From contig VMGJ01000001.1 in the NCBI GenBank assembly GCA_007376485.1, positions 41,788 through 105,787 on the forward strand: 64,000 bases of DNA, in the 5' to 3' direction. The notes beneath the pieces are model-generated. The model searched no databases. It was not told where the DNA came from and worked only from the letters and a program-made list of their open reading frames with translations. Source of the stretch: Parcubacteria group bacterium Licking1014_17 (lineage in GTDB: Bacteria > Patescibacteriota > Minisyncoccia > 2-02-FULL-40-12 > IGHO2-01-FULL-4-A). Of this stretch, positions 2,972-36,977 are shown piece by piece; the first letter of the stretch is position 1, and each line of letters starts with the position of its first letter. The position numbers and the translations under genes were made by a program.

Positions 2972-3441
2972 AAATTTCAACTTTTTTAATTTTATCGGCA
3001 TTATTCTGGCTTATTGAAAAGCTGGTTTATGTTTTGCTCGGAATTCCTTATTTTATTTTCTACCAGTGGATTATTTTTTCCTTGATAGCGTTGCCGGCAA
3101 CCCGCGGTTTTGTTTCGGCGGCGCTAACCGCGGCGTTAATAGCCGACATTTTTTCCGGATTCACTTTCGGGCTGGGTTTTATTTCCATTCTGGCTGTTTT
3201 CGGTTTAATCTTGATTATTAAGAAACTGATAAACATAGACAGAAAACCCTTATACTTCTTTTTATCGTCTTTATTATTTACGGCTGTCTTTTACCTGCTT
3301 CTCGGTTACCTTGCGGGAGCGAATTCAGTTTTCGGCCGTCTGCCCATGATTATTTACTGCTGGATTGTAAGTTCGGTTGTTATAATTTTATTTACCAAAT
3401 TGGCAAAAATAAAATTTCCATGGCCAGGATTTACAAGATAA
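2968..3441 (+). CDS. mreD: MreD-like polytopic membrane protein
   Basis: 157-aa all-hydrophobic protein, start overlaps mreC stop (ATGA), conserved mreBCD-pbp2 order. Confidence 0.55.
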   Translation: MKISTFLILSALFWLIEKLVYVLLGIPYFIFYQWIIFSLIALPATRGFVSAALTAALIADIFSGFTFGLGFISILAVFGLILIIKKLINIDRKPLYFFLSSLLFTAVFYLLLGYLAGANSVFGRLPMIIYCWIVSSVVIILFTKLAKIKFPWPGFTR

Positions 3442-17925: not shown

Positions 17926-19364
17926 TTTTGTTCTCCTCTAGCCATTTCGGCCGGTTGTTTACTGATAATGACAAAAAGCACGTCTTTGGTAAAACTCATT
18001 GTTGATCTGTCGGGCAGGTTAAGGTGAAATTCTAAAACAGCTACCAAATTTTCTGGAATACTGAATTCCGCTTCTCTTCCCAATGTAAAGGATTTTTCCG
18101 CCTGTACCCCGTTGACGTCGTAACGCAGCGTGCCTATCAGGGCTAAAAACCTCTCATCCGGCATTGGAAAAAGATTCATATCTCTTCTTCCGACATCTCT
18201 TGGTGTCCAATTCATCCCCTCGGGACCAACACAGATGTTTTTTGTTTCCAGCTCGTAAGAACAAACCTGCCCGATTGCCTTGACTGTGTATTCTCCCGGT
18301 TCCAGATTGACAATCCGCCACGAATATCTGAGACTCGGATCAAGATCAAGTTTAATCACTGCTGGCGTAATGGCACCGGAAACCACGGCGCGTCCAGTTT
18401 CTTCGGTTTGCTTTTCCGGAATGGGCGGCGGTATCGCATCAACCTTGGCTGACTCTATTTTTAATTTAACCCTTGTTCTTTCTTCCGCTTTCCTGTCTGC
18501 TTCTTTTCTGTCAATCTCGGCTTGCTTGCAGATTAGGTCTATCTCTACCTGCGTGTCGACAGGCTCGAGCCGTTTTCCAGTGGCCGGATGGAAGCCATCC
18601 TCTTCAAAAAGCCCGATTCTCCCGCTGGCATCTTTCCCGTAATACCAAACGTAAGTGACTGTGGGGTTGCCTTTATCGTCAGTGTCGGTTTTTGTCCAAG
18701 AAAATTTACCACAATCGCCAATTGATTCAAGCGAATATTCTTTAGGAACAAACAGCCTTTCTCTTTTGATTTCTTTAGCCTCTTGCATGTCGTGTCGCTG
18801 AACATTTTCTAATCTCGCGCCCAGTCTCTCTTGGTATCCGAACCTTACGATAAGAATGGTAATAACCAATCCAATACGAACTAAGTGAAATTGCCAGCCG
18901 ATTTTTTCAATCGGCAGCCACATTATCAGGGAGACAAGGATGCAACCGCCCAACATTAAAGTGGTAATGGCATGTCCCGCGAAATGCTCGGTTGAGAACC
19001 CGCTGGTGATTATCGCGAGAAGACAGAAAGAGGTTATCATCCACGCGACTATCCGCAACGCCGTCCCGAGAGCCGGAATTTCTTTTGTCAGGATGATGAG
19101 GACGGTAATCAGAGGAACAAAGGCAAAAAGCAGAACAGAAATCGCTCCTGTGGACAACGCGAGGAAAATCGCGTGAACCGACGAATTGCCCGTGAATGAA
19201 CCGATTGTCAGCCACCCAGCCATAAGCAGGATAAAGACTGCCATCGCGACGCCGAGAAATGCCAGCCATATTCGGATGCCCCTGAAAACGTGATCTCCTA
19301 ACCAGCAAAGTGCTTCCCAGGAAGTTCCTAATAGTTCACCGATAAAATCAACTATTTGATTCAT
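17922..19364 (-). CDS. hypothetical polytopic membrane protein with C-terminal soluble domain
   Basis: 480 aa, ~6-7 predicted TM helices in first 200 aa, charged coiled segment 'AEIDRKEADRKAEERTRVKLK', beta-rich C-terminus; start overlaps upstream stop. Confidence 0.6.
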   Translation of the reverse strand: MNQIVDFIGELLGTSWEALCWLGDHVFRGIRIWLAFLGVAMAVFILLMAGWLTIGSFTGNSSVHAIFLALSTGAISVLLFAFVPLITVLIILTKEIPALGTALRIVAWMITSFCLLAIITSGFSTEHFAGHAITTLMLGGCILVSLIMWLPIEKIGWQFHLVRIGLVITILIVRFGYQERLGARLENVQRHDMQEAKEIKRERLFVPKEYSLESIGDCGKFSWTKTDTDDKGNPTVTYVWYYGKDASGRIGLFEEDGFHPATGKRLEPVDTQVEIDLICKQAEIDRKEADRKAEERTRVKLKIESAKVDAIPPPIPEKQTEETGRAVVSGAITPAVIKLDLDPSLRYSWRIVNLEPGEYTVKAIGQVCSYELETKNICVGPEGMNWTPRDVGRRDMNLFPMPDERFLALIGTLRYDVNGVQAEKSFTLGREAEFSIPENLVAVLEFHLNLPDRSTMSFTKDVLFVIISKQPAEMARGEQN

Positions 19365-20029
19365 TTCTTGCCTCTGTGCCAGCGAGCCTGATCAGCCTTC
19401 CTTTTTTCTTGAATGGCTTTTTTCGTCTCGCGGAGTTTAGCGGTTAAAGATTCAAGAGAATCCGATTTGTCCTTAATTTCTTTCTCTTTTGAGTAAAGGC
19501 AGAGAAGGATTTCCTGACTTTTTTTGTCCGCCTTTAGAAATTTTTTGATTTCTTCTGGCGATAATTCGGAAAGTTTTTGAAATACATGATTTCGTTCTTT
19601 CTCGCTTCTTCCCTCGAGTAATATGGCCAGGTGACCAGTAAATGCGATAAAATCTTCTTCCTCCAACTTAACAGCTGTTTTTAGAAGATTTTTTACCGGC
19701 TCACCCTGCTCAAGGGCAACAATATCACCAATACTTTCCTTTATACCATTGACAAACCCGGTTCTTTTTAATGCCTCAGCGGGAACATCATCCACAATTT
19801 CTTTGAAGAATTTTCCAAGCGCCGAATTTTCCGGGATATTTTTACTGACGATGGCGCCAGTCAATACCAAGGCAGCGCCAATAATTCCCTTCTGGATTTT
19901 AGGCAAATCCCGGAGTCCCTTCAGAGGACCCTCAAAAAGCTTGTCATACTGCCCCTCAAGCAGGGCCTTACCCAAAGTTGAGCTGCCCATAGAAAACACA
20001 TCACTCAATCCCGGAAATTTGATACCCAT
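19361..20029 (-). CDS. hypothetical protein, first gene of 3-gene operon
   Basis: 222 aa, one hydrophobic segment 'GIIGAALVLTGAIV', lysine/glutamate-rich C-terminus; no recognised motif. Confidence 0.55.
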   Translation of the reverse strand: MGIKFPGLSDVFSMGSSTLGKALLEGQYDKLFEGPLKGLRDLPKIQKGIIGAALVLTGAIVSKNIPENSALGKFFKEIVDDVPAEALKRTGFVNGIKESIGDIVALEQGEPVKNLLKTAVKLEEEDFIAFTGHLAILLEGRSEKERNHVFQKLSELSPEEIKKFLKADKKSQEILLCLYSKEKEIKDKSDSLESLTAKLRETKKAIQEKRKADQARWHRGKK

Positions 20030-20253
20030 TATGACCTCCGATTTTGAATAGGTTAAACACGTTTTAGATTAGCATCTATTTATCGCTGTTGTTTAAATTG
20101 TCAAAGAACAATTCCGTTATACGATATTATGGGGTTTTAGTAAATAACATGAACTAGGTAAAGCCCTCGCCATTCTTCGGCAGCGGGTTATTTTTGTCTT
20201 GTTTATAACTGATTATTGTATTGTTTGCCGGCCGTGTTACGATACAGATAACA

Positions 20254-22860
20254 ATGAAAAATGCCAATTTGGCAAGAATCACTGCGGGGAAGCAGTTTTT
20301 CGGGTTAGGGAAAAAACTCGGGCTGTTTTTGTTTGTAATTTTTTCCGTTTGGATTTTATTTTTTGTTGTCGGGAAAAATGTAGCCGCGGATATTGCTTAT
20401 AGCTGCACCACCAAAGCTTCTGGCAATTGGGACGACCCCAATATCTGGAGCGGTTGTAATCCGACTTCTGGTTATCCGCAAACGAACGACACGGTTACGA
20501 TTGACGGCAATAACCAGGTGACATTAAATGTTCCCTCAGCTACCATCGCCGGACTTTCTTTCAGGGATACGGGATCCTTGGTTCATAAAAACGGAAACTC
20601 GCTGGCAATTAGCGGCTCGGTCGCGCTAAGCCAGCCCATAAGCGGAAATGACGTGTTTAATCAATGGCAGATAAATGATGGTTCGGCGATTGCCGTCGGG
20701 CAGATTTCTTTGGGCGGAATCGGTGCCGGCAAACTTGGCAGTAAGATTATCATTACTTCCGGAACCTTGACTGCCAAGAGCGGCATCGCTTTCCTGTGTA
20801 ACGGGCTAAATTACGAAAATTGCGTTCTTGATATGTCCGGCGGCGCGGGACGCGTTAACGTGAAAGGTCCCTTAGGTGGAATTGAAAATGCGACATTAGT
20901 GGCTGGATCAGAAAGCACAATCAGTTTCATTGATGATTCAGCAGACATGGACATTTATATGTCATGGGGCAGCGGCAGTTTTAATAATATTGAGATTAAC
21001 AGCTCCGATAAAAACGTTTATTTGGGCGAGGACATAACGCCTTTGAATGTCTTAGGAAATTTAACGGTATCAAGCGGGGTGTTTAAGCAAAACGGATATA
21101 ATGTCGAGGGCAATAATGGCAAAACACTTGAGGTAAAGAACGCCGGAACCTACGTTATAGAAGGCAATGCAACATTTCCCCCGGGTTTTGGCGCTTATTC
21201 TTTCGATGAAACCAGCACCGTGGTGTACGCGCAGAATGTAAATACGGCCATTTCGGCTCAAAACTACGGCAATGTTACGATAGAACCGGATCAGCCGGCT
21301 GATAGCGGAAGCATTGTTTTCACAATTGACCAGGGCAAGATTGTTATGGCCGGTGGCTTAGCGATAGAAACAGGAATCGCAGCCAAACCGATCACGGTTG
21401 ATGCGAATAAGAACGAAGTTCTTCTGGATATCGGAATCGGAGGCGTAATGATAGCGCAAAATGCCGAATTAATAGCCAATGGCAAAAATTTTCTCGAAAA
21501 CGACGGACCGTGGATAAACGAAGGAACATTCACTCACAACAACAACGCGGTTTATTTCGGCGGCGACAAATCAGATGCATATAAATTCATTCCGGGCAAA
21601 AGTTCGTTTTACAATCTTTTTATTGTCGGCAAGAGCATTTGGGACCTGAATAGCAACGATTTAAATGTGGAGAATTTGTTGAAGGTGGACAATGGCATAC
21701 TTTCCGGCACCGGAAACGTTGAAGTTAATGGCAATGTTGATTGCGCTTTTTCCTGCGCCGGTTCAATAAACATGACCGGCGGCAATTTTACGGTTAGGGC
21801 GCCGAAGGATGTTAATTTCGGCACCATTGGCGGTTCCGCTGACTGGCTGTTTAATAATCTCACTTTTAATAATTCTGATTCATCCGAACATACAGTAACC
21901 GCAAGCGCCGGCGGAACAGGAGAAATCAAAATCAGCGGCGTATTGACCGTTGGCGACGCCGATGATATAGCTAAAACTGTTTTTGACGCGAGTAACCGGA
22001 CTTGGGAATTAAGCGGAGGAAAAACGCCGTTTGATATTGTTGCCGGTTCTTTCAAGTCAAACACCTCAACATTCAAATACACCGCGGCAGAAGATGCCAC
22101 CATAACGGCTGAAAGCTATTATAATCTTCAGATTATGCCGGGAGAAGAAAGCACTCATACGATTGCCGAGGGCGCGCTGGCGGTGAGCAGCAATCTTGAT
22201 ATTGGAGACAAGGGAGCCGGCACGGTGACGGCGGACGCGAATAATCCGACCATAGACATTGACGGCAATTTTTCAATCGCCGAAGATTCCACTTTTATCG
22301 CGCCCGGAAAAACGGTTCTTTCAATCGCCAAGAATTTTTCAAACAAAGGAATATTCACCAACAGCGGTGGGATGGTGAGTTTTGACGGTGACAAAGACAG
22401 CGTAATCAGCGGTGACAAAACGGCTTTTTATAGCTTATCAATTACGACGCCGGGCAAGAAAATGAAATTCAGCGCCGGCCAAACATTTAATATAGGAGGG
22501 GATTTCACCGTTACCGGTTCGGTAAGCGGCAGTATTTATATTTCATCCGATATAGAAGGCTCAAAATGGTTTATTAACAAACAAGGCAAAGATAACATAA
22601 CTTTTGCCGATATTAAAGATTCCGGATGCGACGAGAAAAGCGGGGATATCGCATGCGGAGAAACATCCATAAACAGCAGTAATAATGATTTCTGCTGGAA
22701 GTTCGGTTCCGGTTTAAGAATAACATCCTACCCAAACAACGCATCCAAATCGGTTATTCCGATGGCCAGCCCAGCCGGCAAAGCTTCCTATGCCGGTACC
22801 AGTACTTACACCAACCAACCCTTGCCGTCGTTAAGACCGTTACCGCCAATCCGCAGATAA
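20254..22860 (+). CDS. large S/T/G/N-rich cell-surface protein, paralog of the giant protein's N-terminal module
   Basis: ORF open from 20221; likely start ATG 20254 (MKNANLAR..) then TM 'LFLFVIFSVWILFFVV'; 'YSCTTKASGNWDDPNIWSGC' module and C-terminal 'W[FV]INKQG..DSGCD' module both shared with 22939..31227. Confidence 0.75.
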   Translation: MKNANLARITAGKQFFGLGKKLGLFLFVIFSVWILFFVVGKNVAADIAYSCTTKASGNWDDPNIWSGCNPTSGYPQTNDTVTIDGNNQVTLNVPSATIAGLSFRDTGSLVHKNGNSLAISGSVALSQPISGNDVFNQWQINDGSAIAVGQISLGGIGAGKLGSKIIITSGTLTAKSGIAFLCNGLNYENCVLDMSGGAGRVNVKGPLGGIENATLVAGSESTISFIDDSADMDIYMSWGSGSFNNIEINSSDKNVYLGEDITPLNVLGNLTVSSGVFKQNGYNVEGNNGKTLEVKNAGTYVIEGNATFPPGFGAYSFDETSTVVYAQNVNTAISAQNYGNVTIEPDQPADSGSIVFTIDQGKIVMAGGLAIETGIAAKPITVDANKNEVLLDIGIGGVMIAQNAELIANGKNFLENDGPWINEGTFTHNNNAVYFGGDKSDAYKFIPGKSSFYNLFIVGKSIWDLNSNDLNVENLLKVDNGILSGTGNVEVNGNVDCAFSCAGSINMTGGNFTVRAPKDVNFGTIGGSADWLFNNLTFNNSDSSEHTVTASAGGTGEIKISGVLTVGDADDIAKTVFDASNRTWELSGGKTPFDIVAGSFKSNTSTFKYTAAEDATITAESYYNLQIMPGEESTHTIAEGALAVSSNLDIGDKGAGTVTADANNPTIDIDGNFSIAEDSTFIAPGKTVLSIAKNFSNKGIFTNSGGMVSFDGDKDSVISGDKTAFYSLSITTPGKKMKFSAGQTFNIGGDFTVTGSVSGSIYISSDIEGSKWFINKQGKDNITFADIKDSGCDEKSGDIACGETSINSSNNDFCWKFGSGLRITSYPNNASKSVIPMASPAGKASYAGTSTYTNQPLPSLRPLPPIRR

Positions 22861-22938
22861 CAATTAAATAGATTTCCCCACTTCTCAACAATCCGCGGTT
22901 TAACTTCCCCGCGGTTTTGTTAAAATATACAGGTAACA

Positions 22939-25900
22939 ATGAAAAGGATTGATTTAAAGAAGATCATCCATACTGGTCAGTTTTTTGCCGTGAAAAAGAT
23001 TTTCGCAACAAAAAGAACTCTCAAGCTGATTTTTGCCGCTGCCATAACAGCTACCGTCATATTTATTGTCATTTTCTCCTTTGTTAATGCCGGTCTTTTC
23101 AACTTCTATCCTCAAACCTGCCTTGGCGACTGGGAATACGCCGAAAACGCTTCCGGCAAACCCGACCTTCCTCCCGACGCCACTACCGAGAAATTTGATA
23201 AGAACAATTCCGCCTTCTTTTCCGGCGGTTACCGCAAGATATTCTGTGGCAACTTCAGAAGCAATGATGAATCCGGAGATAAAATCTTCCAGAAAGCAAA
23301 ATTGAGGTTGTCGTGGACACTCGTGCCGGACATCAACTCTGCGGTGCCTGTCATCGACCAATCCGAGTTTCAAAAAAATATACTGGATTATAGCGGGGAC
23401 GAAAAGATTATCGTGGTTCCCGATGAAGAAAAATCCGCTCCCGAAAAACAAGAGAATACGGTTTTACCTTCACCCGATGTAAGTTCATCAGCCGAAGAAA
23501 AAACACTGGAGCCGGTTCCGTCAGAATCACCCAGCCCTCAATCCGAATCGATTCCACCGACCGAGTCACCGCAATCTCCGGCGGAAGAGAATACCGCCCA
23601 AGAAAACGCTGATGTCGGCGAGCCGAGCAGTTTTAATGGAACATCTTTATTTAAAATGGGGCTTCTTGGCGTTTTCAGGACAGCGCTTACAGAGAATATC
23701 GGATCACTTCTGGGGTTAATAATGGAAATTAACAACAACAGCAGTTCCAGCTTGGAGGAAACGCTAACTCCTACAGAGCCCTCGGTTTTCATGCCCGAAA
23801 TAAGTATGGAGACGACTTCTGAAAAAGTTGAAACAAGTTCTACGCCCGCGAGCATTGCCGCCGGCGACGGCACGGCCTCAAAATCGGAATCCCCTCTGGA
23901 AAAAGAAATAATACCGCCAAAATCTTTGGATGATTTTCTTGAAATACTTTACAGCGTTGACGGCAAAAACTGGGAATCCATCGGCAATGTAAATCTTGAC
24001 AGTTTCAATAACGCCGAATTTGAGGTGCCTATTATTTCATGGAACGAACTGGCGAATCTCCAAATCAGAATCGGCGGGACGGGGCTGACGGACAGCGTGA
24101 GCGGAGTGTATTTGGACGGGATGTGGCTGGAAGTCAGTTATAGCGACAGTCAAGACGAGGTTGTTAGCGAGGATATAATGAGGGGATTGCCGAAAGTTCA
24201 GGTCAAAGACTCGGACGTTTTCAAATCAAAGAAAAAAGATTTTCGCTTTAACGAAGACGTGAAGTTTGAAATTAATCTTGGAAAAACGGCTTCCGGGAGC
24301 GTTGATGAAAACACGAAACCGCCAGCAACGCCTGAACCGTCGTCGCTTCTCAAAAATTCTTATAAAAATATTTTGGGCGCCGAGAGCGCCTTAGCCGCCG
24401 GCAGGATTGTTGAAGCCAGAGTATACAGCCCGACCGGCAAGCTGACAAATATAAAACCGTATATCAAGCAAGATACGGGGACTGAAACCGCGCAAATCTT
24501 TTTTTCGCCGCCCGGGCGAGCATACAAATCGGGCAAATACAAACTGGTCGTTGAGATTCTTCAGGATGACCGGGTAGTTGTGGCGGAACACGATTTTACC
24601 TGGGGTGTCCTTGCTTTGAACGCCAATAAGTCCATCTATATACCGGGCGAGTCGGCTTATCTTCAGTTCGCTTCGTTGAGCAATATAGGGCACACTTTGT
24701 GCGACAGCAATCTTGAGCTCATTATCACTCCGCCAAAAGGGCCAGAGTGGGTATTAAGCGTAGAGGACGGCGATATAAAAAGGAGCGACACCTGCGGACC
24801 CAATAATTATACCGACAAACCGGATTACTACGCGTATTACACGCCCGAATACACGGGCGCTTACGGACTCACACTGAAAAATTTGGATAACGGGAATGAA
24901 ATAACCGACTCCATTCAAGCCGACGGTTTGGTTGATATGGATGTGGAACGCGTCGGTGCGACGCGCATTAATCCGTTTTTGGGACAGAACTATTTTACGA
25001 CCATTAATATCAAAGCAGGTCAGCCTTTTGAGGGAGAAATTGTGGATACGCTCCCAAAGGGATTTGTGGTTATGGGCAGTTCCGATTACATTGTCCGCAA
25101 AACACCGACGGGCGACGTAGAAGTAGTATGGAGAAAAATTTTATTGCGTGGGGACACGGCTATCCTGACCTATGAATATGACCCGGCTGATATCTCGCCG
25201 GAGCTGTTTCTTCTGGGTCCGTTAAAATTTATCGCGAAGTCGGATCCGCTATCGTCTTTTTTTCAGGAAGCGCGCCAGTGGCAACTGGCGTCGGATTATT
25301 CCTGCGTCGCAAAAGCGACCGGCGCCTGGAGTGCCAGCGGCACTTGGACAACATGTAATTCAACCACACCCCAACCGACGGATACGGTTACAATCGCCAC
25401 AACATATGTTGTGACATTGGATACTTCGGCTACCATCGCCGGTCTTAGCCTTGCAAACACAGCTCAACTGAATCATCCCGGCACAAATGCCCTAACTGTG
25501 AATGGTTCAGTTGCCCTTACACCGCCGCCGACAGTCAATTTTAATCAATGGAACATTGCGGGAGGTACCGCGACCGTAACCGGCGCGATAACGTGGGGTG
25601 CCGGTGGCAGTTCAAAGGTATCTAAGATTTTAATTACAACCGGAACATTAAATGCCAGTGGCGGATTATCATTCGGCTGCCTTAATTACCCGGCAAGCTG
25701 CCTTATTGATATGTCGGGGGGCGCGGGCACTTTAAATTTAAGCGGCGCCATAACAAGCGTAACCAAAGGGCAACTAACGGCCGGGACCACCAGCACTTTC
25801 GTATACGCTGACCAGAGTGCCGACCAAACAATACAAATGGCTTGGGGCGGCGGCAGTTACAATAATCTTGGAATTAATAACGGCGCTAAGGTGGCAACCG

Positions 25901-28900
25901 TAGCCGAAAATATAACGACATCAAACGTGAGCGGTAGTATAACAGTTACCAGTGGCACTTTCAACGCCAGTAATGTTACGATTGCGGGCAACAGCGGCAA
26001 AACATTTGAGGTTGATAACGGAGCCACCTTCACGATGAGCGGCAATACAACTTTTCCGACCGGCTTTTCCACGTTTACTTTTCAGAGCACGAGCACCACA
26101 AAATACGGACAGAGTGTGGATTCGGATATTTCGGCGCAGAGCTATGGTTATCTGATAGTCAGTCCTGTTGCCGACCCCTCCAGCCACAGCGCTGATTTTT
26201 ATCTTGCTTCGGGAACCATTTCCACCGCCAGTGCTTTTATTGTCGCTTTGGGTTCCGCTGCCACTTCAGTTTTTGTTAATGCCGACACGAACGACCCGAC
26301 TCTTGATATAAACAGTTATTTGTCCATAGGCGCGAGCACGACTTTTCAGGCTTCAAATTCCGGAACTTTCACCATCAACGGCAGTTTGTTTAACGCCGGC
26401 ACGTTTACCCACAATAGCGGCACCGTCACTTTTGACAGCACCGCGAGCGGCAGGGGGATAAATATGAACGGCAGTTCACTATATAACTTGACGATTAACG
26501 GTTCCGGCGGCGAATGGTCGTCGCTCACAAATATGCTGACAGTAGCCAATGATTTAATCTTGACCGCCGGAACTTTAAACAATGCTTCCGGCAGTGCGGA
26601 CATTGAAGTCAACGGAAACGTTTCCTGTAACGGCACCTGCGGCACAGTCAGTTTGACAGCCGGAAAGTTTACCCAGAAAGTTGCCGCCGACAAAAATTTC
26701 GGAACGTCAGTGGCTGTTGCCACTGCCTGGACTTTCAATGCCTTGCATTTCACCAACAGCAGCGGCACCGACAGGATAATCACAACCAGTACCACCGGCA
26801 CCGGAACCATCACCGTAACAGCTTCCATGTCCATCGGCGTTTTCAGCGCCACCAACAAAGCCACGCTTGACGCCGACCACAGAACCTGGATTTTAAGCGG
26901 AAGTAATGAAGCCGATGCACACATTCCTCTTTCCATTGACGCCACCAAAGGAGCTCTAACCGCTCACGCATCGATTTTCCGCTACACCGGCAGTTCCACT
27001 ACCACAATCGAGGCGGCAACCTACTACAATCTTGAAGTAAAACCCGGTGGTGCCGTGACCCATACTTTCAAAGCGGGGACGACGACGGCTTACACTTTAA
27101 CCGCGGGAGACGGATCCAATAGCGGAACAATAACCACCAATACCAATAGCACGACCCTTGATATTGGTTTTGGAGGAGTTTCTATAGCTGCCTATGGCAC
27201 TCTCGTCGCCCATGCCAGCAATGCTTTTACTGTTGAAGGTTCATGGACAAACGCCGGCACTTTTACTCATAGTAGCGGCACGGTAACTTTTGACGGAACG
27301 ACGGTAGCTTCAATTCCAGTAACAACCGGCGGCAGTTCTTTCAATAATTTAATGATAGCGGGAGCGGGTAACTTCGCATTGCAGGATTCAACGACAATCG
27401 CCGGCGATTTGAAAGTAAACAGCGGCACCTTTTCTGGTGGCGTTGTCACGACTGTTAACGGCGACGTAACTTGTGTTACCACCTGCGGCACGATAAACTA
27501 TGCCAGCGGTATTTTTATACAAAACGTTGCCGGAAACAAAGCCTTCGGCACTACCGCCGGTACTGCTACGTGGACATTTAATGTTCTTCACTTTGCCGCC
27601 AGTGACGGTACTGACAGGGTGATTACCGCCAGTTCGGGTGGCACCGGAACCATCACCGTCACTGCCTCCATGTCCATCGGCGTATTCAGCGCCACTAACA
27701 AAGCTACGCTTGATGCCGGCAACAGAACATGGATTTTAAGCGGAAGCGACTCAAACGGTGATTCTCCCCTATCTATAGACGCCACTAAGGGCGCCTTAAC
27801 CGCTAACACGTCAACTTTCCGTTATACCGGCAGTTCAGCCACTACGATTGAGGCGGCTACTTATTACAATCTTGAAGTAAAACCCGGCGGCGCCGTGACC
27901 CATACTTTCAAGGCGGGGACAACAGGAGCAAATCATTTACTTACTATTGGCGACGGAGCTAATAGCGGAGTCGTAACAGCAAATACCAACAGTACTATTT
28001 TGGATGTAGGCGACGGCACAAGCGGCAGCGGCGTTTCAATCGCCGCCAGCGCCACGCTGACGGCCAACGCCAGCAACGGTTTCACGGTTTACGGCTCATG
28101 GACAAACGCCGGCACGTTTACCCACAGCAACGGCACGGTTACCTTTGACGGGGATGATGACTTAATTAGCTTTACCCTTACTCCGGCAAGCAGTCCATTC
28201 TACAATCTGACCGTAAATAATACGGGAGGCGCAATATGGACATTACAAAGCGGTCAGACTCTTATTGTAGCTAACGATTTATATATTAACGGCGGGACAC
28301 TGAACGACGATAGCGCTACTGCCATGGTTTTTAACGGAAACGTAACCTGTTCGGTGACCTGCGGTATTATCAACACCTCTGCCAATGTTATCCAAAACGT
28401 TGCCGCCAATAAAGTCTTCGGCACTACTGCCGGCACCGCCGCCTGGACTTTCAAAGCCCTTCATTTTGCCAACAGCAATGGAACCGACAGATTAATCACT
28501 ACCAGTTCGGGTGGCTCCGGAACCATCACCGTCACTGCCTCCATGTCCATTGGCGTTTTTAGCGCCACCAATAAAGCTACGCTTGATGCCGGCAATAGAA
28601 CTTGGATTTTAAGCGGGAGCGACTCAAACAGTGATCCCCCCTTAACTATTGACGCCTCCAAAGGGGTTTTGACTGCCAATACATCTACATTCAGATTTAC
28701 CGGTAGTTCCGCCACCACAATCGAACAAGCGACTTATTACAACCTTGAAGTAAAACCCGGCGGCGCCGTGACTCATACTTTCAAAGCGGGAACAACAGCG
28801 GCTTACGGGCTAACCGCTGGAGATGGAGTCAATAGCGGAGTCATAACGGCCAACACCAACAGCACAATCCTTGATATAGGTTTTGGGGGAGTTTCCATAG

Positions 28901-31227
28901 CCGCCAACAACACCCTTATTGCCCATGCCAGCAATGCTTTTACCTGCGAAGGTTCCTGGACAAACGCCGGCACATTCACCCATAGCAACGGCACGGTAAC
29001 TTTTGACGGAACTGGTTCCCACACAATTAATAACGGGGATAAAACCATTAATTCTTTTTACGGTCTAATAATTAATAAGGCGGGTGGAGTTTGGGATGTT
29101 ACGAGCAATGATATTGTAGTTCAATACTCACTTACAATAACAGCGGGAACTCTTGATTTAAACGGGCAGGGGTTATCTGCTAGTCTGACTTTGGTCAATG
29201 ATGACACTCTGCGTCTTCAAGGCGGTGAAACGATAACTGGATTAACTATGGACACAAATTCGGGGACAGTTGAATATGATGGCACTACCGGATACACCGG
29301 GCTTAAGGCAGGAAATGAATATTTTAATCTGAAATTTAGCGGTTCCGGAGGTTCTTGGACGTTAAATCATGACTTAGTCGTAAATGCCACTTTTGCTATT
29401 ACAAACGGAACAGTGGATGCGTCCGGTTCAAATTATGATATCAGCGTCGGCAAAAGCTGGAATAATGCCGGAACGTTCACCGCCCAGCAGGGTGCGGTCA
29501 CTTTTGACGGCAATTTTAATGTGGCGACATGGGGTATCACAACTGGCAGTAGTCCTTTTTATGATTTGGTAATAATCGGACCCGACCCCTATATGATCAG
29601 TAGCGACATTACTGTCCAAAACGATTTGGACGTGAACGGAAGCACCTTAAACGGCTTTGGTTCAAATGTCATGACCGTCAATGGAAATGTTACCTGCGTC
29701 ACTACTTGTGGCACTATTTCTGGATTAAATCTTTTCCAGACTGTCAGCGCAAACAAAGTCATTGGGCCCGTTACCGGCACGAACGACTGGTCGTTTGGTT
29801 TTCTTCATCTGTCCACTTCCGGAGGTTCGGACAGAACCATTACCGTGAACAGCGGAGGTAGCGGGGCATTTGCCGTGGCTTCCTCCATGTCCATCGGTGT
29901 TTACAGCGCTTCCGCGAAGACCATTCTTGACGCGGACAATAAGACATTTATATTGAACGGCAGCGACGAAGCCGATGGAGATGTTCCGTTCACCGTCGGC
30001 GCCAACGGCACTTTTACGCAAAATACTTCCACTTTCAGATTCGCCGGCACTTCGGCGACCACCGTTGCTGCGGGAACTTATTATAATTTGGAAATAAAAC
30101 CGGGCGGAACAGGCACTCACACCATAGCAAGCGGCGCTTTGAAAACGAATAATAATTTTGTAATTGGCGACGGGACGCATACCGGCTCGGTAAACGCTAC
30201 GACAAACGACCCCAATATCAACGTGGACGGAAGCTTTTCAATCGCGGCGAGTTCCGAGTTTGTTGCTTCTGACGCCGGAACATTTTCAATAGCCAAAAAC
30301 TTTTCGAATTCCGGCGCATTTACCCATAGCAATGGCACGGTAACTTTTGACTCACTTAACAACAGCACCGTCAGCGGCTCTAATACAATCTTTTATGGTT
30401 TATCGATGGCGACTGACAACAAAAAAATGAGGTTCACTGCCGGGCAGACGTTTGAAACTGACGGATTGATGACGCTTGGCGGTTCCGATGCCGACAATCA
30501 GGTTCAAATCGTTTCTACCGCCTCTGATTCGCAATGGTTTATAAATCACCAAGGGACCGAAAGCGTGAACTATACGTACGTCCATGATTCGGGTTGCGAC
30601 GCTTCCTCAACGGACATAACAGTTACTACGGGTACCGACGGCGGCAACAACGGGCTATGCTGGGTGTTCGATTATAATATAACGGTTGCGCTCTGTTCGG
30701 ATCCCGACATTGATTTTGGAACTTTGGCGCCGGGCAGCGGCAGGGTTACCAGAACCTCGTGTATTTCGATTAACACCAACAATCCCAGCGGTTATTCGAT
30801 CAGCGCCGGAAGGGACCGGGCAAGTCCGGCAACCACGCTTGCCTCCGAGGGGGATACAAGCATTAATATTTCCGATACGCTGAACGGCATTGATGTTTTT
30901 GACGGATTATCCAGTTGCACCGCCAGCCCCAATATAACTTCGCCGTGGGTTGAAGGTGCGTCAACAGGCCTCGGCTATGTTCTTTATAGAGCCGATGTCG
31001 GTAAAAGCACAACATGCTGGGGCACGGGGACAAACGAAACCGATTCCGCGAACCGATATGCTGCCTTGCCGGCTTCAAATGGACCGGCGGATGTATTTTT
31101 GAATGTGCCCGTAAATTCTCCGAATCCTTCCTATTCTTCGGTCGGCTGGAGTTTGGATATCCCCACAAATCAAATTCCCACTTCTTACGGCGGTATGGTG
31201 ATTTATTCAATTACCGCTAATCCTTAA
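22939..31227 (+). CDS. giant (2762 aa) repetitive cell-surface protein
   Basis: N-terminal TM, S/P/E-rich linker, ~285-aa tandem repeats ('TFTHSNGTVTFDG..TGTITVTASMSIGVFSATNKATLDAGNRTWILSGS..'), C-terminal ~230-aa domain shared with 33669..34433. Confidence 0.85.
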   Translation: MKRIDLKKIIHTGQFFAVKKIFATKRTLKLIFAAAITATVIFIVIFSFVNAGLFNFYPQTCLGDWEYAENASGKPDLPPDATTEKFDKNNSAFFSGGYRKIFCGNFRSNDESGDKIFQKAKLRLSWTLVPDINSAVPVIDQSEFQKNILDYSGDEKIIVVPDEEKSAPEKQENTVLPSPDVSSSAEEKTLEPVPSESPSPQSESIPPTESPQSPAEENTAQENADVGEPSSFNGTSLFKMGLLGVFRTALTENIGSLLGLIMEINNNSSSSLEETLTPTEPSVFMPEISMETTSEKVETSSTPASIAAGDGTASKSESPLEKEIIPPKSLDDFLEILYSVDGKNWESIGNVNLDSFNNAEFEVPIISWNELANLQIRIGGTGLTDSVSGVYLDGMWLEVSYSDSQDEVVSEDIMRGLPKVQVKDSDVFKSKKKDFRFNEDVKFEINLGKTASGSVDENTKPPATPEPSSLLKNSYKNILGAESALAAGRIVEARVYSPTGKLTNIKPYIKQDTGTETAQIFFSPPGRAYKSGKYKLVVEILQDDRVVVAEHDFTWGVLALNANKSIYIPGESAYLQFASLSNIGHTLCDSNLELIITPPKGPEWVLSVEDGDIKRSDTCGPNNYTDKPDYYAYYTPEYTGAYGLTLKNLDNGNEITDSIQADGLVDMDVERVGATRINPFLGQNYFTTINIKAGQPFEGEIVDTLPKGFVVMGSSDYIVRKTPTGDVEVVWRKILLRGDTAILTYEYDPADISPELFLLGPLKFIAKSDPLSSFFQEARQWQLASDYSCVAKATGAWSASGTWTTCNSTTPQPTDTVTIATTYVVTLDTSATIAGLSLANTAQLNHPGTNALTVNGSVALTPPPTVNFNQWNIAGGTATVTGAITWGAGGSSKVSKILITTGTLNASGGLSFGCLNYPASCLIDMSGGAGTLNLSGAITSVTKGQLTAGTTSTFVYADQSADQTIQMAWGGGSYNNLGINNGAKVATVAENITTSNVSGSITVTSGTFNASNVTIAGNSGKTFEVDNGATFTMSGNTTFPTGFSTFTFQSTSTTKYGQSVDSDISAQSYGYLIVSPVADPSSHSADFYLASGTISTASAFIVALGSAATSVFVNADTNDPTLDINSYLSIGASTTFQASNSGTFTINGSLFNAGTFTHNSGTVTFDSTASGRGINMNGSSLYNLTINGSGGEWSSLTNMLTVANDLILTAGTLNNASGSADIEVNGNVSCNGTCGTVSLTAGKFTQKVAADKNFGTSVAVATAWTFNALHFTNSSGTDRIITTSTTGTGTITVTASMSIGVFSATNKATLDADHRTWILSGSNEADAHIPLSIDATKGALTAHASIFRYTGSSTTTIEAATYYNLEVKPGGAVTHTFKAGTTTAYTLTAGDGSNSGTITTNTNSTTLDIGFGGVSIAAYGTLVAHASNAFTVEGSWTNAGTFTHSSGTVTFDGTTVASIPVTTGGSSFNNLMIAGAGNFALQDSTTIAGDLKVNSGTFSGGVVTTVNGDVTCVTTCGTINYASGIFIQNVAGNKAFGTTAGTATWTFNVLHFAASDGTDRVITASSGGTGTITVTASMSIGVFSATNKATLDAGNRTWILSGSDSNGDSPLSIDATKGALTANTSTFRYTGSSATTIEAATYYNLEVKPGGAVTHTFKAGTTGANHLLTIGDGANSGVVTANTNSTILDVGDGTSGSGVSIAASATLTANASNGFTVYGSWTNAGTFTHSNGTVTFDGDDDLISFTLTPASSPFYNLTVNNTGGAIWTLQSGQTLIVANDLYINGGTLNDDSATAMVFNGNVTCSVTCGIINTSANVIQNVAANKVFGTTAGTAAWTFKALHFANSNGTDRLITTSSGGSGTITVTASMSIGVFSATNKATLDAGNRTWILSGSDSNSDPPLTIDASKGVLTANTSTFRFTGSSATTIEQATYYNLEVKPGGAVTHTFKAGTTAAYGLTAGDGVNSGVITANTNSTILDIGFGGVSIAANNTLIAHASNAFTCEGSWTNAGTFTHSNGTVTFDGTGSHTINNGDKTINSFYGLIINKAGGVWDVTSNDIVVQYSLTITAGTLDLNGQGLSASLTLVNDDTLRLQGGETITGLTMDTNSGTVEYDGTTGYTGLKAGNEYFNLKFSGSGGSWTLNHDLVVNATFAITNGTVDASGSNYDISVGKSWNNAGTFTAQQGAVTFDGNFNVATWGITTGSSPFYDLVIIGPDPYMISSDITVQNDLDVNGSTLNGFGSNVMTVNGNVTCVTTCGTISGLNLFQTVSANKVIGPVTGTNDWSFGFLHLSTSGGSDRTITVNSGGSGAFAVASSMSIGVYSASAKTILDADNKTFILNGSDEADGDVPFTVGANGTFTQNTSTFRFAGTSATTVAAGTYYNLEIKPGGTGTHTIASGALKTNNNFVIGDGTHTGSVNATTNDPNINVDGSFSIAASSEFVASDAGTFSIAKNFSNSGAFTHSNGTVTFDSLNNSTVSGSNTIFYGLSMATDNKKMRFTAGQTFETDGLMTLGGSDADNQVQIVSTASDSQWFINHQGTESVNYTYVHDSGCDASSTDITVTTGTDGGNNGLCWVFDYNITVALCSDPDIDFGTLAPGSGRVTRTSCISINTNNPSGYSISAGRDRASPATTLASEGDTSINISDTLNGIDVFDGLSSCTASPNITSPWVEGASTGLGYVLYRADVGKSTTCWGTGTNETDSANRYAALPASNGPADVFLNVPVNSPNPSYSSVGWSLDIPTNQIPTSYGGMVIYSITANP
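26395..29010 (+). repeat. tandem ~856-nt (285-aa) intragenic repeats, 3 near-identical units plus degenerate units to ~30.4 kb
   Basis: Unit starts marked by 'GGCAC.TT.AC.CA.A..A.CGGCAC.GT.AC.TTTGAC' at ~26398, 27258, 28110, 28966; long identical stretches e.g. 'GTCACTGCCTCCATGTCCATCGGCGT' recurring. Confidence 0.8.
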
Positions 31228-31230
31228 CTT

Positions 31231-33588
31231 ATGTTTATCAGGGATGATTTTATAAATAGTTTTGATTATATTCTCTACAGGATAATCAGGTTCGGCATTC
31301 TGTTCGTGCCGTTTATTTCTCTGGTTGTAATTAGGAATATTTATTCGCCGTTTGAATTCAGTAAAGGGATTGTTTTCCGGGTAATCACCGAAATAATTTT
31401 TTTCATTTATGTTTATCTGGCGTTTAAATATCCGAATCTCCGCCCGTCTTTTTTTAAAAAAAGGCCGGATAAATATGTGCTGGCCGGTTTGGTCGCCTTA
31501 GTGGTTCTCGTAGTATGGCATTTTATTTCCGGATTATTCAGTTCAAGCTGGACTCTTAGTTTTTGGGGCTATATAGAGAGGATGGGCGGCATTTTCGCGT
31601 TGCTTCACTATATCGCTTTTTTTGGAGTTGCCGCTTCAATACTGCGCACGAGGAAAGAGTGGGAAAATCTTATCTGGGCTTCGGTGGCGGCGGCGCTGAT
31701 TTCATCAGTTTACGGCATTCTGCAAAAATATTCCGTAAGCGCGGTTGTCGGCGCGGACCAGAGGTTCAGAATTTTCGGGACCGTCGGCAACCCGGCTATA
31801 TTCGCCGGCTATCTGCTTTTTAATTTCTATTTTGTTTTATACCTGTCTTCGCGTCAGGAATCGAAAATACGCAGATTCCTTCTGTATTTCGCCGCATTCA
31901 TATTCGCATCCGCGATAATTTTGTCAGCCTCCCGGGGAGCGGCGGCGGCTCTAATTGTAAGTTTTGTTTTTTTGATTTTTTATATTCTGTATAAAAAAAG
32001 CGCCAGTCCATACGGAAAAAAGAAGAGCTTGATTATCGCGGCGCTCGCGGTAGTCATTATTGCCACAATTTTTTCCGGGATTGTATTAACTCGTTCCGGG
32101 TCCGGGCTCGGATATTTTTCCAGACTGACCGATTTCAGTGTGAAGAGCGGCTCCATAAATTCGCGGTTGCTTGTCTGGGGCATGGCGCTAAAAGGGATAG
32201 CCGAAAAACCGGTTTTGGGCTGGGGTCCCGAAAATTTTATAGCCGTTTATTACAAGAAATACGACCCTAAAATGTATGAGTCGCCGGCTCAAGATTATTC
32301 TTCTGACAGGGCTCATAATATTATTTTGGATTGGCTGGCTGCCGTCGGTGTTGTGGGCTTGCTGTCTTATCTGCTGATTTGGTACTGCGCGATAAGGAAA
32401 ATTGGCGCCCGGGATTACAATGATATGCCGTATTTTTCTCGAGGAGCGCTTTATGCCGCCGCCGTCGCGTATTTTGTTTTTAATTGCACTTTTTTTGACA
32501 CGACTAACACTTATCTGATGGTTATTTTTTTTATGGGCTTGGCTTTTCTTTGGGACGATTATGTGGCAGACGGAGTGGCGACAAAAGTGCCGGAAGGTAA
32601 TACCCCGGTCAACACCGTAGTCGGCGTATTGGCTCTGGTTTCCTGTTCTATTTTAATTATCTGGGCGAATATCCTGCCGTTTCTGTCAAACTATTATACA
32701 AATATGAATAAGAGGGCAAACAGCAGGGGGGATTTCGGGGAAGCGTTTAAGTATCTTGAACTCGCGAGAAACACCGCCACATGGACGGAAACCGACGCCG
32801 TGAGGAATTTAACTTCAGAACTGATAACCGCCCTGAACACGCAAGCGGATTATTTTAAAAACGAAGATAACAGAAAATCTTTCGGGGTTATCGCGCAGGA
32901 TCTTCGCGACGAGATGGAAAAACGTCCGGAGGACGCCGCTTCGTACACTTTTTTATTTAAAATGGAACAAATACTCGCGGCAAATTTTGGAAAGCAGATT
33001 AAACCCGTTGAAGATACCATCTGGACAGCAACCGCCATATTTCCCAAATTGATTCCGCTTTATTATGAACTTTATTACAGCGCCTTGATACGAAATGATT
33101 TTGAAGGAGCCACGAATGTAGCGAACAAAATATTGGAAATCAGACAGGACTTGCCCTTTGGAAAGTTTTGGCTCGCGTATGTCATAACTCGGAAGGATTT
33201 AAACGATAAAAATAGGACAAAACTGCGGAGTTCTTTAAATACCTTGGGCGACAGCTTTGACAGTTCGTTGTTTAACGCAGGCGATAATTACGGCAGTATA
33301 AAACCGTTGCTTGACGAGTTGAGTTATAAATTAAGGAAGACGGGTTATTATCTGGAGATGAGAGATTTGCATTTAATGATAGCAAAATATAAGCCTTCAA
33401 GTTATGTTTATGCGAGCTACGCGAGTTATATGATGCGTGACTTAAAATCAGCCATGAAATACGCCGACGAAGCGCTCGCTCTTGACAATAGCCTAATGAG
33501 CAGTAAGGACTATGAAACATTAGCCGACATTTATGGGGCATTGGGTGATAGAAAAAAACAAGGAGAAGCATACATAAAGATTCAATAA
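31231..33588 (+). CDS. Wzy_C (O-antigen ligase / O-oligosaccharyltransferase-like) polytopic membrane protein with C-terminal TPR repeats
   Basis: 785 aa; ~12 TM helices; 'SASRGAAAALIVSFVFLIF' matches Wzy_C/RfaL/PglL-type ligase core; C-terminal ~300 aa of TPR-like helical repeats ('DYETLADIYGALGDRKKQGEAY'). Confidence 0.65.
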   Translation: MFIRDDFINSFDYILYRIIRFGILFVPFISLVVIRNIYSPFEFSKGIVFRVITEIIFFIYVYLAFKYPNLRPSFFKKRPDKYVLAGLVALVVLVVWHFISGLFSSSWTLSFWGYIERMGGIFALLHYIAFFGVAASILRTRKEWENLIWASVAAALISSVYGILQKYSVSAVVGADQRFRIFGTVGNPAIFAGYLLFNFYFVLYLSSRQESKIRRFLLYFAAFIFASAIILSASRGAAAALIVSFVFLIFYILYKKSASPYGKKKSLIIAALAVVIIATIFSGIVLTRSGSGLGYFSRLTDFSVKSGSINSRLLVWGMALKGIAEKPVLGWGPENFIAVYYKKYDPKMYESPAQDYSSDRAHNIILDWLAAVGVVGLLSYLLIWYCAIRKIGARDYNDMPYFSRGALYAAAVAYFVFNCTFFDTTNTYLMVIFFMGLAFLWDDYVADGVATKVPEGNTPVNTVVGVLALVSCSILIIWANILPFLSNYYTNMNKRANSRGDFGEAFKYLELARNTATWTETDAVRNLTSELITALNTQADYFKNEDNRKSFGVIAQDLRDEMEKRPEDAASYTFLFKMEQILAANFGKQIKPVEDTIWTATAIFPKLIPLYYELYYSALIRNDFEGATNVANKILEIRQDLPFGKFWLAYVITRKDLNDKNRTKLRSSLNTLGDSFDSSLFNAGDNYGSIKPLLDELSYKLRKTGYYLEMRDLHLMIAKYKPSSYVYASYASYMMRDLKSAMKYADEALALDNSLMSSKDYETLADIYGALGDRKKQGEAYIKIQ

Positions 33589-33668
33589 TCTACCTGTGGA
33601 TAATGCTATTTGCGCTTGTTTGCAGGGGGTTTATAATTAAATGAGTTTATTAATTACCTACACATACC

Positions 33669-34433: not shown

Positions 34434-34475
34434 TCGATTTTGCGCCGCAACGGCAACTAATTTAAATGATTAATT

Positions 34476-35405: not shown

Positions 35406-35424
35406 TATTAATTATTATTTAATA

Positions 35425-36303: not shown

Positions 36304-36319
36304 TTTATTTCTCTAACTA

Positions 36320-36964: not shown

Positions 36965-36977
36965 TGTTTTATAAAAA

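Follow-up and report, generated by a model that had tools for sequence, protein, structure and literature searches.

The window analysed here is a 64,000-nt stretch of a contig from Parcubacteria group bacterium Licking1014_17, in which two genes for very large proteins, ORF1 and ORF2, lie on the same (+) strand with a spacing of 78 nt. The coordinates of these two adjacent and intact ORFs, originally predicted to encode 868 and 2762 aa, were confirmed, and so was the predicted richness in S, T, G and N (ORF2 is T/S/G/N/A-rich overall, with T 13.3%, S 10.9%, and G 10.5%). The ATG at 20254 is supported as the start codon of ORF1 by a 5' leader common to both genes, TACAG[AG]TAACAATGAAAA. Both genes are located within a ~19.5-kb array of surface-protein genes. 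An Rfam scan of the window gave no match, and a promoter and terminator scan gave no signal above that of shuffled sequence. The features of the two genes and of the genes directly downstream are as follows.

20254 to 22860, + strand: ORF1 (CEN90_56), 868 aa, with an ATG start; an alternative TTG at 20221 would give 879 aa
ORF1 aa ~18-45: hydrophobic segment
ORF1 aa ~36/46-426: beta-helix head
ORF1 aa 426-701: ~276-aa unit
ORF1 aa 701-820: C-module, followed by a short Pro-rich tail
22939 to 31227, + strand: ORF2, 2762 aa, a full-length giant of the family (P0008 in the family set)
23014 to 23112, + strand: ORF2 N-terminal hydrophobic segment, aa ~26-58, signal peptide or signal anchor
23326 to 23928, + strand: ORF2 Ser/Pro/Glu-rich low-complexity linker, aa ~130-330, read from the translation
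23926 to 25257, + strand: ORF2 beta-sandwich region (MG/Ig-like domains), aa 330-773
25258 to 26406, + strand: ORF2 beta-helix head, aa 774-1156, counterpart of the ORF1 head (aa 36-426)
26404 to 28977, + strand: ORF2 tandem ~286-aa (858-nt) units 1-3, aa 1156-1442, 1442-1727, and 1727-2013
28975 to 29478, + strand: ORF2 divergent 167-aa segment, aa 2013-2180, in which a partial unit is recognisable
29476 to 30321, + strand: ORF2 fourth, older unit, aa 2180-2461, 41-48% identical to units 1-3
30319 to 30678, + strand: ORF2 C-module, aa 2461-2580, counterpart of ORF1 aa 701-820
30676 to 31224, + strand: ORF2 tail-A domain, aa ~2580-2762, ~180 aa, ending ...SYGGMVIYSITANP
31231 to 33588, + strand: 785-aa polytopic membrane protein with a Wzy_C (O-antigen ligase/polymerase-type) domain
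33669 to 34433, + strand: 254-aa small tail-A protein, a signal peptide or anchor followed by a tail-A domain only
34476 to 35405, + strand: WxLIP homologue 1, 309 aa, adjoining the small tail-A gene
35425 to 36303, + strand: WxLIP homologue 2, 292 aa from the ATG at 35425, a paralogue of homologue 1 with the same architecture

ORF1 and ORF2 are paralogues, as the original prediction held, with a similarity far beyond chance (BLASTP, 39% identity over 744 aa, E 5e-114, with a second HSP of 40% over 438 aa, E 4e-79). Their N- and C-terminal modules are shared as predicted, but the similarity is not limited to these modules and covers the whole of ORF1, which aligns in its entirety to aa 774-1500 of ORF2 and then again to aa 2145-2577. 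The N-terminal module, which had been placed at the start of ORF2, actually begins at aa ~774, after a 770-aa region that is absent from ORF1, and the stretch between the two modules of ORF2 measures ~1,630 aa rather than the claimed ~2000 aa (~600 aa in ORF1). In ORF2 this stretch contains four full ~286-aa units and one odd 167-aa segment; units 1-3 show pairwise protein identities of 66-72%, and each opens with AGTFTHSxGTVTFD. Tandem Repeats Finder returned no match for these repeats because their period exceeds 500 nt. The head of ORF2 starts with the motif Y-x-C...G-x-W...DTVTI, the equivalent start in ORF1 giving a weak sub-threshold G8 match, and the C-module of ORF2 carries the signature ...AGQTF...QWFINHQGTE...DSGCD...NNGxCW. 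An extra C-terminal domain of 180 aa in ORF2, tail-A, had been overlooked. ORF1 contains neither tail-A nor the MG-like N-terminal region.

Each protein contains one hydrophobic segment, located at the N-terminus with a Kyte-Doolittle mean above 1.8 and preceded in both paralogues by a GxQFF motif, in agreement with the predicted membrane-spanning start. Both ORF1 and ORF2 carry an export or anchor segment at the N-terminus and are beta-solenoids of the right-handed beta-helix type. The beta-helix fold that had been suspected is borne out by structural similarity to solved right-handed parallel (pectate-lyase-like) beta-helices, and the best structural matches are non-enzymatic adhesins. Pfam and NCBIfam searches with ORF1 and ORF2 returned nothing beyond sub-threshold matches to G8 and DUF6423, the G8 (PF10162) match being a partial one at ORF1 aa 72-116 with 17.8 bits against a cut-off of 22.9. 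PDB profile searches with the whole family, the N-terminal region of ORF2, and the tail yielded no useful match. In favour of a surface location, also part of the original prediction, are the hydrophobic segment at the N-terminus and the neighbouring genes, all of which encode secreted or membrane-anchored products. Judging from fold and context, ORF1 and ORF2 may serve in host attachment.

Whereas a word-indexed homologue search found a handful of relatives, an exhaustive profile search placed ORF1 and ORF2 in a very large family, present mainly in Patescibacteria/CPR, that counts 5,854 representatives at E≤1e-3 (971 of them at E≤1e-30), mostly of 2,000-7,700 aa. We found no Pfam model for this family, no paper on its modules (head, 286-aa unit, C-module, tail-A, and tail-B), and no paper linking it to WxLIP homologues. 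Using the C-module as query, we collected 79 related genomic loci, almost all from Patescibacteria classes. The relatives differ strongly in copy number, domain content, and tails; the ~286-aa unit occurs 1-5 times, and the C-module in many giants is also found internally and in more than one copy. Residues ~490-765 of ORF2 correspond to a module that is kept near the N-terminus of many family giants and gives a partial match to MG2 (alpha-2-macroglobulin-type), below the Pfam cut-off in most members. Short matches of WxLIP_HBD to this N-terminal module of the giants extend over only ~36 of the 138 positions in the profile and amount to a generic G-x-Y hairpin; they were not counted as homology. 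A metagenome scan for close orthologues of ORF2 found one locus, in which a relative of its N-terminal region is 35% identical.

WxL clusters are defined by a WxL protein of small size, a large one whose WxL domain is C-terminal, and a DUF916-DUF3324-TM protein (PMC9772566, PMC10599100), and have been reported to occur almost exclusively in two Firmicute orders (PMC10599100). We compared the locus with the systems of Lactobacillales and Bacillales (the Csc clusters of L. plantarum, the Elr locus of E. faecalis, and loci A-C of E. faecium), applying the membership definition of Hassan et al. This definition includes at least one WxLIP with a signal peptide, DUF916/PGBD, DUF3324/HBD, and a C-terminal TM, and two such genes are present. 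By sequence comparison, the two genes that follow the small tail-A gene encode full-length WxLIP homologues, in which both extracellular domains are present along with a C-terminal TM helix. In homologue 1, a signal peptide, a DUF916/PGBD-like domain, a second beta-sandwich domain, a C-terminal TM helix, and a basic tail follow each other in this order. Pfam WxLIP_PGBD is matched by 7 of 9 WxLIP-like family members (best E 3.3e-6), the WxLIP-like protein of the window scoring 22.3 bits, below the gathering score of 27.3. The best PDB sequence match of the WxLIP-like proteins is EfmWxLIP1 (9i25/9i1y), and hhalign against six genuine WxLIPs gave a probability of 98.9% and an E of 2.2e-17 over 245 columns spanning both domains.

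The definition also includes two PF13731 WxL-domain proteins of 160-190 aa with two Trp-x-Leu motifs. The tail-A domains of ORF2 and of the 254-aa protein are 45% identical (E 3e-34). Tail-A proteins did not match PF13731 at E≤10, whereas genuine WxL controls gave 4e-10 to 5e-68; hhalign of tail-A against WxL aligned just 23-24 columns with a probability of 2-9%. A PDB sequence search with tail-A also gave no match. Tail-A and the WxL domain are nevertheless similar in size (median 177 vs 172 aa) and both strictly C-terminal, and a terminal motif, Y-x3-[LIV]-x-[W/Y]-x-[LIVA], is common to the two; in 32 of 46 tail-A sequences it is found 4 residues from the end. The Trp of the WxL motif is replaced at both tail-A positions, mostly by Tyr and also by Phe. 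At the level of sequence, then, tail-A is not a detectable WxL domain and shares only the C-terminal motif with it; by analogy, we propose it as a docking domain at the position that the WxL domain holds in large WxL proteins.

As for cluster architecture, a small protein consisting of the terminal domain only and a large protein with the same domain at its C-terminus are adjacent here as in WxL clusters: ORF2 and the 254-aa protein are one gene apart, and this arrangement recurs in at least 16 related loci. Across the relatives, the association of tail-A proteins with WxLIP homologues is nearly obligatory, a WxLIP-like gene being present in 16 of 16 loci with tail-A and in 6 of 63 without it (79 loci; Fisher p 3.5e-12). 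A recurrent cassette of a giant, a WxLIP-like protein, a ~400-aa tail-A protein, and another WxLIP-like protein is kept in this order in 9 loci. In the related locus L005, a tail-A protein, Wzy, a 254-aa tail-A protein, and a WxLIP-like protein are syntenic, and the Wzy_C homologue at the same position is 32% identical over 795 aa with faint TPR matches. The helical C-terminal half of the 785-aa Wzy_C protein itself gave no TPR match. A 771-aa TPR membrane protein beside P0003 in locus L002 was also considered as a homologue of this Wzy_C protein, and its similarity was not significant.

The gene cluster resembles the WxL surface-display system, and ORF2 appears to be its cargo. We estimate at roughly 55% the probability that ORF2 is the large subunit of a WxL-type surface-display cluster in a CPR bacterium and ORF1 its stripped-down paralogue. 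In such a system, ORF2 would be exported by Sec, and its tail-A, together with the small tail-A protein, would dock on the membrane-anchored WxLIP homologues as in the Firmicute WxL model, and probably on peptidoglycan as well. The beta-helix shaft of ORF2 would project away from the cell to a length set by the number of ~286-aa units, and would carry at its distal tip the MG/Ig-like N-terminal module, which could bind a partner cell or polymer. ORF1, having neither tail-A nor the tip module, would be either tethered by its own N-terminal helix or released. More speculatively, the adjacent Wzy_C-type protein may add glycans to the Ser/Thr-rich surface. The same tail type terminates many family giants and many others have different tails or none, so tail-A docking would be one of several modes.

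Alternatively, the long hydrophobic segment of ORF2 could stay in the membrane as an uncleaved anchor, and the proposed topology would then be inverted, with the linker and the MG-like domains near the cell and tail-A at the distal tip. There, tail-A might form polymers with the small tail-A protein, or be capped by it, in a donor-strand arrangement like that of pilins. This topology would fit the position of the long segment after a charged N-region of 17-25 aa, typical of signal anchors, in both paralogues, and that of the low-complexity linker of ORF2 directly after the helix, as in wall-spanning stalks. Pilin-like structures (donor-strand pilins, TasA, and CanA) are also the best, albeit non-significant, Foldseek matches of tail-A, but these fold matches are unreliable since they come from an AlphaFold2 model of pLDDT 41, built on a five-sequence alignment, and all have E>0.1. 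The tight linkage of tail-A genes to membrane-anchored WxLIP homologues, on the other hand, is more easily explained with tail-A at the cell surface, and in the known WxL system it is the equivalent C-terminal domain that lies closest to the wall (PMC9772566). We regard the inverted topology as unlikely.

It is also conceivable, if improbable, that ORF1 and ORF2 are mainly enzymes or carbohydrate-binding proteins, that is, beta-helix lyases, hydrolases, or depolymerases attacking a host envelope or polymer, as the weak G8 match at the start of the helix and the idea that CPR bacteria damage host envelopes (PMC11665869) might suggest. However, Pfam and NCBIfam searches with ORF1, ORF2, and four relatives gave no match to any lyase or hydrolase family, the closest structures are the non-enzymatic adhesins mentioned above, and near-identical 286-aa units amplified in tandem are characteristic of spacers or shafts rather than of catalytic domains. 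A structural role in an S-layer-like or sheath-like coat, with no specific binding of a partner, seems quite improbable to us. The abundance of the family across Patescibacteria and the location of the genes in the surface-protein array would be compatible with it, but the S-layer protein RsaA, found among weak Foldseek matches, is not a significant one (E 0.46), and the strong variation in copy number, domains, and tails together with the fast divergence seen in the metagenome scan is more usual for adhesins, or for proteins on which diversifying selection acts. Finally, although the sequence comes from a MAG and ORF2 holds ~858-nt tandem repeats, it is hardly credible that the ORFs are pseudogenes or artefacts of collapsed or chimeric repeats, since the reading frames run unbroken over 2.6 and 8.3 kb of assembled sequence with 0 internal stops and no frameshift (the signs of decay named in the original prediction), the window contains 0 ambiguous bases, repeat collapse is made unlikely by a longest exact DNA repeat of 34 nt within 20221-31227 and by a DNA identity of only 61-83% between the unit copies of ORF2, and the same architecture is canonical in hundreds of independent relatives.

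Attachment to host cells is the presumed way of life of CPR/Patescibacteria, yet how they hold on is poorly known. In the only Saccharibacterium that has been studied genetically, surface adhesins are reported to be essential (PMC11665869). The locus described here offers a testable model with a docking module (tail-A and the WxLIP homologues), a shaft whose length would be set by unit number, and a tip module that is conserved. With it, WxLIP homologues are now known outside the groups where WxL clusters have mainly been described, and the modules defined here for a family of thousands without a known Pfam model would improve the annotation of CPR genomes. As a tentative and still somewhat doubtful extension, Patescibacteria may widely use a deeply diverged relative of the Firmicute WxL system, with a YxL-type terminal domain docking on WxLIP homologues, for mounting on their surface giant beta-helix fibres that would bear a conserved MG-like tip. 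If so, the cassette would represent an apparatus, not recognised before, by which epibiotic ultra-small bacteria generally attach, and would provide an evolutionary link between the surface-display machineries of CPR and Firmicutes.

Among known systems, we compared ORF1 and ORF2 with the beta-solenoid adhesins SRRP-BR of L. reuteri (5nxk), PfbA of S. pneumoniae, and the tapirins of Caldicellulosiruptor, and with the autotransporter and two-partner-secretion (TPS) passengers Hap, Pet, HMW1, and EtpA. Unlike the solved beta-solenoid adhesins, to which they show no sequence similarity (no PDB sequence match), ORF1 and ORF2 have no beta-barrel translocator, TPS domain, SRR region, or LPXTG anchor, and the repeat of ORF2 is a ~286-aa super-repeat extending over several helix turns. 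The envelope of the source organism is understood to be of the monoderm type, and no autotransporter or two-partner-secretion match was found in ORF1 or ORF2 with Pfam or NCBIfam. The C-termini of both proteins lack an LPXTG motif, and no sortase or SecA2/Y2 gene was found among the scanned ORFs of the window. In being secreted repeat-rich proteins of ultra-small or predatory bacteria with small genomes, ORF1 and ORF2 resemble the giant surface proteins (2-8 kaa) of CPR/Patescibacteria and Omnitrophota known from metagenomes.

The locus differs from WxL clusters in that its host is a Patescibacterium and not a Firmicute, that tail-A fails both the Pfam WxL model and profile-profile comparison, that the Licking1014_17 cluster contains an inserted Wzy_C membrane protein gene, that neither an LPXTG protein nor a sortase was noticed in it, and that ORF2 has as its passenger a beta-solenoid of 2,500 aa with no sequence relationship to those of Firmicutes. 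Comparison of CPR beta-helix modules with the passengers of genuine Firmicute large WxL proteins detected no similarity. Like WxL clusters, however, the locus combines a small protein consisting of the terminal domain only, a large protein with a long passenger, and one or two membrane-anchored two-domain proteins; its tail-A resembles the WxL domain in size, position, and C-terminal motif; and its WxLIP component is, as judged by hhalign (98.9%), a true homologue. Furthermore, a genuine WxL cluster in one of the loci examined (L091) also includes a gene annotated as encoding a pectate-lyase-like adhesive (beta-helix) protein.

The two neighbouring ORFs of the original prediction, encoding 868 and 2762 aa, are present with a 78-nt gap:

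20254-22860, + strand: ORF1, 868 aa (879 aa if read from the upstream TTG at 20221)
22939-31227, + strand: ORF2, 2762 aa

ORF1 matches CEN90_56 (100% identity) from a 188-kb contig of Licking1014_17, a metagenome-assembled CPR genome, and ordinary chromosomal genes lie nearby (aminoacyl-tRNA synthetases, GroEL, PBP2, TGT, and a UvrD/AddA-like helicase). The ATG at 20254 is supported as the ORF1 start because the same leader, TACAG[AG]TAACAATGAAAA, precedes both genes. Both products are rich in T, S, G, N, and A, and each begins, as predicted, with one hydrophobic segment. BLASTP aligned them with 39% identity over 744 aa (E 5e-114) and, in a second alignment, 40% over 438 aa (E 4e-79), which makes their paralogy certain. 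The earlier observation is thus real, although its details needed correction: the similarity ascribed to two shared terminal modules exists, but the whole of ORF1, not two ends only, aligns to ORF2. An assembly artefact is a weak explanation of the pair: no base in the window is ambiguous, exact repeats within 20221-31227 reach 34 nt at most, and copies of the ~858-nt repeat share only 61-83% DNA identity. The ORF1-ORF2 spacer carries CCGCGG-N10-CCGCGG followed by TTTTGTT (22896-22923), which could be a weak hairpin or attenuator fixing the ORF1:ORF2 expression ratio. Both paralogues have G-(K)-Q-F-F within the charged stretch that precedes their hydrophobic segment (20287 and 22975); this motif, absent at that position from every other window ORF of at least 100 aa, may mark a specialised signal peptide.

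The domains are arranged as follows:

ORF1: hydrophobic segment; beta-helix head, aa 46-426; one repeat unit, aa 426-701; C-module, aa 701-820; short Pro-rich tail
ORF2, aa 26-58: hydrophobic segment
ORF2, aa ~130-330: Ser/Pro/Glu-rich linker
ORF2, aa 330-773: beta-sandwich region
ORF2, aa 774-1156: beta-helix head
ORF2, aa 1156-1442, 1442-1727, and 1727-2013: units 1-3
ORF2, between units 3 and 4: odd segment of 167 aa
ORF2, aa 2180-2461: unit 4
ORF2, aa 2461-2580: C-module
ORF2, after the C-module: C-terminal tail-A, ~180 aa

Pairwise identity among ORF2 units 1-3 is 66-72%, whereas unit 4 is 41-48% and the ORF1 unit 37-41% identical to them. Judged by these values, units 1-3 seem to stem from a more recent tandem amplification, and the duplication behind ORF1 and ORF2 seems old.

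The AlphaFold2 model of ORF1, made from a six-sequence alignment (mean pLDDT 70, about 88 over aa 50-350), is an unbroken series of 3-5-residue strands, i.e. a solenoid. Its structural matches include the IgA1 protease and Pet passengers, a Caldicellulosiruptor adhesin, tapirins, Vag8, Candida Awp adhesins, HMW1, EtpA, pertactin, and PfbA. Model and matches back the predicted beta-helix, and the surface-protein reading is likewise supported; host attachment is what we infer for the two proteins. An enzymatic role is a rival to it, with polysaccharide lyases/hydrolases, along with phage tailspikes, ranking only slightly lower among the matches, and the modelled ORF1 fold alone does not separate adhesin from enzyme.

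Word-indexed searches returned almost no relatives. An exhaustive profile search returned 5,854 cluster representatives at E<=1e-3 (971 at E<=1e-30), most of them 2,000-7,700 aa long with several matched stretches; the few with a source name are from CPR bacteria, and the four relatives scanned had no Pfam match above threshold. Scanning one genome per species for the C-module motif QW.INHQG gave 79 loci, nearly all in Patescibacteria classes (Levy-, Veblen-, Colwell-, Doudna-, Giovannoni-, Kaiser-, Berkel- and Dojkabacteria, Minisyncoccia, Paceibacterota, and others), with a few in Omnitrophota, Planctomycetes, Chitinophagaceae, and other groups. Family proteins contain one to five near-full units, and their C-module is frequently internal and present in more than one copy. 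A module corresponding to ORF2 residues ~490-765 is kept near the N-terminus of dozens of giants; in 9 of 11 members it matches MG2 (macroglobulin-type) partially. Tail-A, ending in ...Y.T.I.YI.TP.F, follows the C-module in many giants. This family architecture indicates that ORF2 is the full canonical form and ORF1 a minimal version. In many other giants (P0015, P0022, P0031, P0034, and others) tail-A is replaced by a "type B" tail, in which a Gly-rich linker leads into two GGSGY..P.V repeats and the protein closes with GGGGGG[SA]P; this suggests an alternative anchoring or sorting mode.

The surrounding genes of interest are:

10642-14015, - strand: two tandem PMT_2-family membrane glycosyltransferases (protein O-mannosyltransferase/ArnT-like)
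17020-20029, - strand: three genes (301, 480, and 222 aa), upstream of and divergent from ORF1, without Pfam match; the 480-aa protein has a polytopic N-terminus and no NCBIfam match
31231-33588: Wzy_C gene
33669-34433: 254-aa tail-A protein
34476-35405: WxLIP homologue 1, directly downstream of the 254-aa gene
35425-36303: WxLIP homologue 2, paralogue of homologue 1
36320-39815, + strand: three secreted/anchored proteins, gaps 0-16 nt: 214 aa (CarboxypepD_reg-like), 226 aa, and 718 aa (Big_5-like, with a 16-Gly run and a Pro-rich segment)

The stretch 20254-39815 looks like a single ~19.5-kb co-directional surface-protein gene array. The 254-aa protein is 45% identical to the ORF2 tail (E 3e-34), and its mature form is essentially the tail-A domain. 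In each WxLIP homologue, a signal peptide is followed by two beta-sandwich domains, and a TM helix with a basic tail makes up the C-terminal end. Pfam WxLIP_PGBD (DUF916) matched seven of nine family members (best E 3.3e-6), and EfmWxLIP1 was the best PDB sequence match of the family profile. Genuine WxLIPs for comparison came from six WxL clusters on plasmids of Enterococcus, Lactiplantibacillus, and Lactococcus; hhalign aligned the CPR family to them over 245 columns covering both extracellular domains (probability 98.9%, E 2.2e-17), which identifies both products as true WxLIP homologues.

This linkage recurs in related loci. In L005, a 479-aa protein (tail 52% identical to that of ORF2) comes first, then a Wzy_C/TPR protein that shares 32% identity with the window protein over 795 aa, then a tail-A protein of 254 aa, and then a WxLIP homologue at 46% identity. 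In L001, giant P0002, which has tail-A, precedes a WxLIP-like gene, and in L003 and L004 such a gene is flanked by two tail-A proteins. Among the 79 loci, picked by C-module only, 16 have tail-A and 22 a WxLIP-like gene, the latter present in 16/16 tail-A loci vs 6/63 others (Fisher p 3.5e-12); nine are arranged as giant, WxLIP-like, ~400-aa tail-A protein, WxLIP-like. In related CPR contigs, two other genes carry an internal PDDEXK_3 (PF13366) nuclease domain: one is WxLIP-like and the other is LepA, where the domain separates the two GTP_EFTU halves (L001 7749-9227, L002 19397-21694). This looks like a mobile in-frame insertion.

Beyond the fold class, domain architecture, paralogy, WxLIP homology, and gene linkage, which our analyses demonstrate, we propose a mechanism to which we give a probability of roughly 55%. 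Sec would export ORF2; tail-A, together with the small tail-A protein, would dock on the membrane-anchored WxLIP homologues and the wall; the beta-helix would act as a spacer whose length is set by the number of units; and the MG-like module would form the distal binding tip. ORF1 would be a short variant, tethered to the membrane or released. More speculatively, the Wzy_C protein and the two PMT_2 enzymes might attach glycans to the Ser/Thr-rich surface proteins. An inverted topology of ORF2 and an S-layer-like role of the two proteins are rivals to this docking mechanism. Giant CPR surface proteins were already known; what is new is that this family is tied to a conserved docking cassette of WxL type with a wide distribution among Patescibacteria.

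In the proposed model of the known system, a platform bound to peptidoglycan is built from WxL domains and WxLIP, and the passenger projects from it; the reported range of this system hardly extends beyond Lactobacillales and Bacillales (PMC9772566, PMC10599100). In the library searched, no paper ties CPR bacteria to WxL or DUF916. By the tests applied, tail-A does not qualify as a WxL domain: it had no PF13731 match at E<=10, whereas genuine WxL controls scored 4e-10 to 5e-68, and hhalign aligned only 23-24 columns (probability 2-9%, E 0.02-0.0035). These columns are the extreme C-terminal hairpin, where 32 of 46 tail-A sequences have Y-x3-[LIV]-x-[Y/F]-x-[LIVA] four residues before the end and the WxL domain has Y-x3-L-x-W-x-L in the same register. 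Moreover, an internal G-Y-x-[LIV] parallels the G-W-x-L of WxL, and the median domain sizes are 177 and 172 aa. Tail-A may be either a very remote WxL homologue or an analogue. In a genuine Firmicute WxL cluster (L091, Enterococcus raffinosus plasmid pCX012922), a "pectate lyase-like adhesive domain" gene (1471-4119) neighbours three WxL genes, one WxLIP gene, and one sortase gene; beta-helix proteins therefore also accompany classical WxL clusters, although the L091 protein and the CPR giants share no sequence similarity. The window cluster follows the logic of a WxL cluster, with tail-A in the place of WxL, and by this analogy it probably works like one; one of its components, the WxLIP homologue, is by sequence a true homologue of a WxL-system part.
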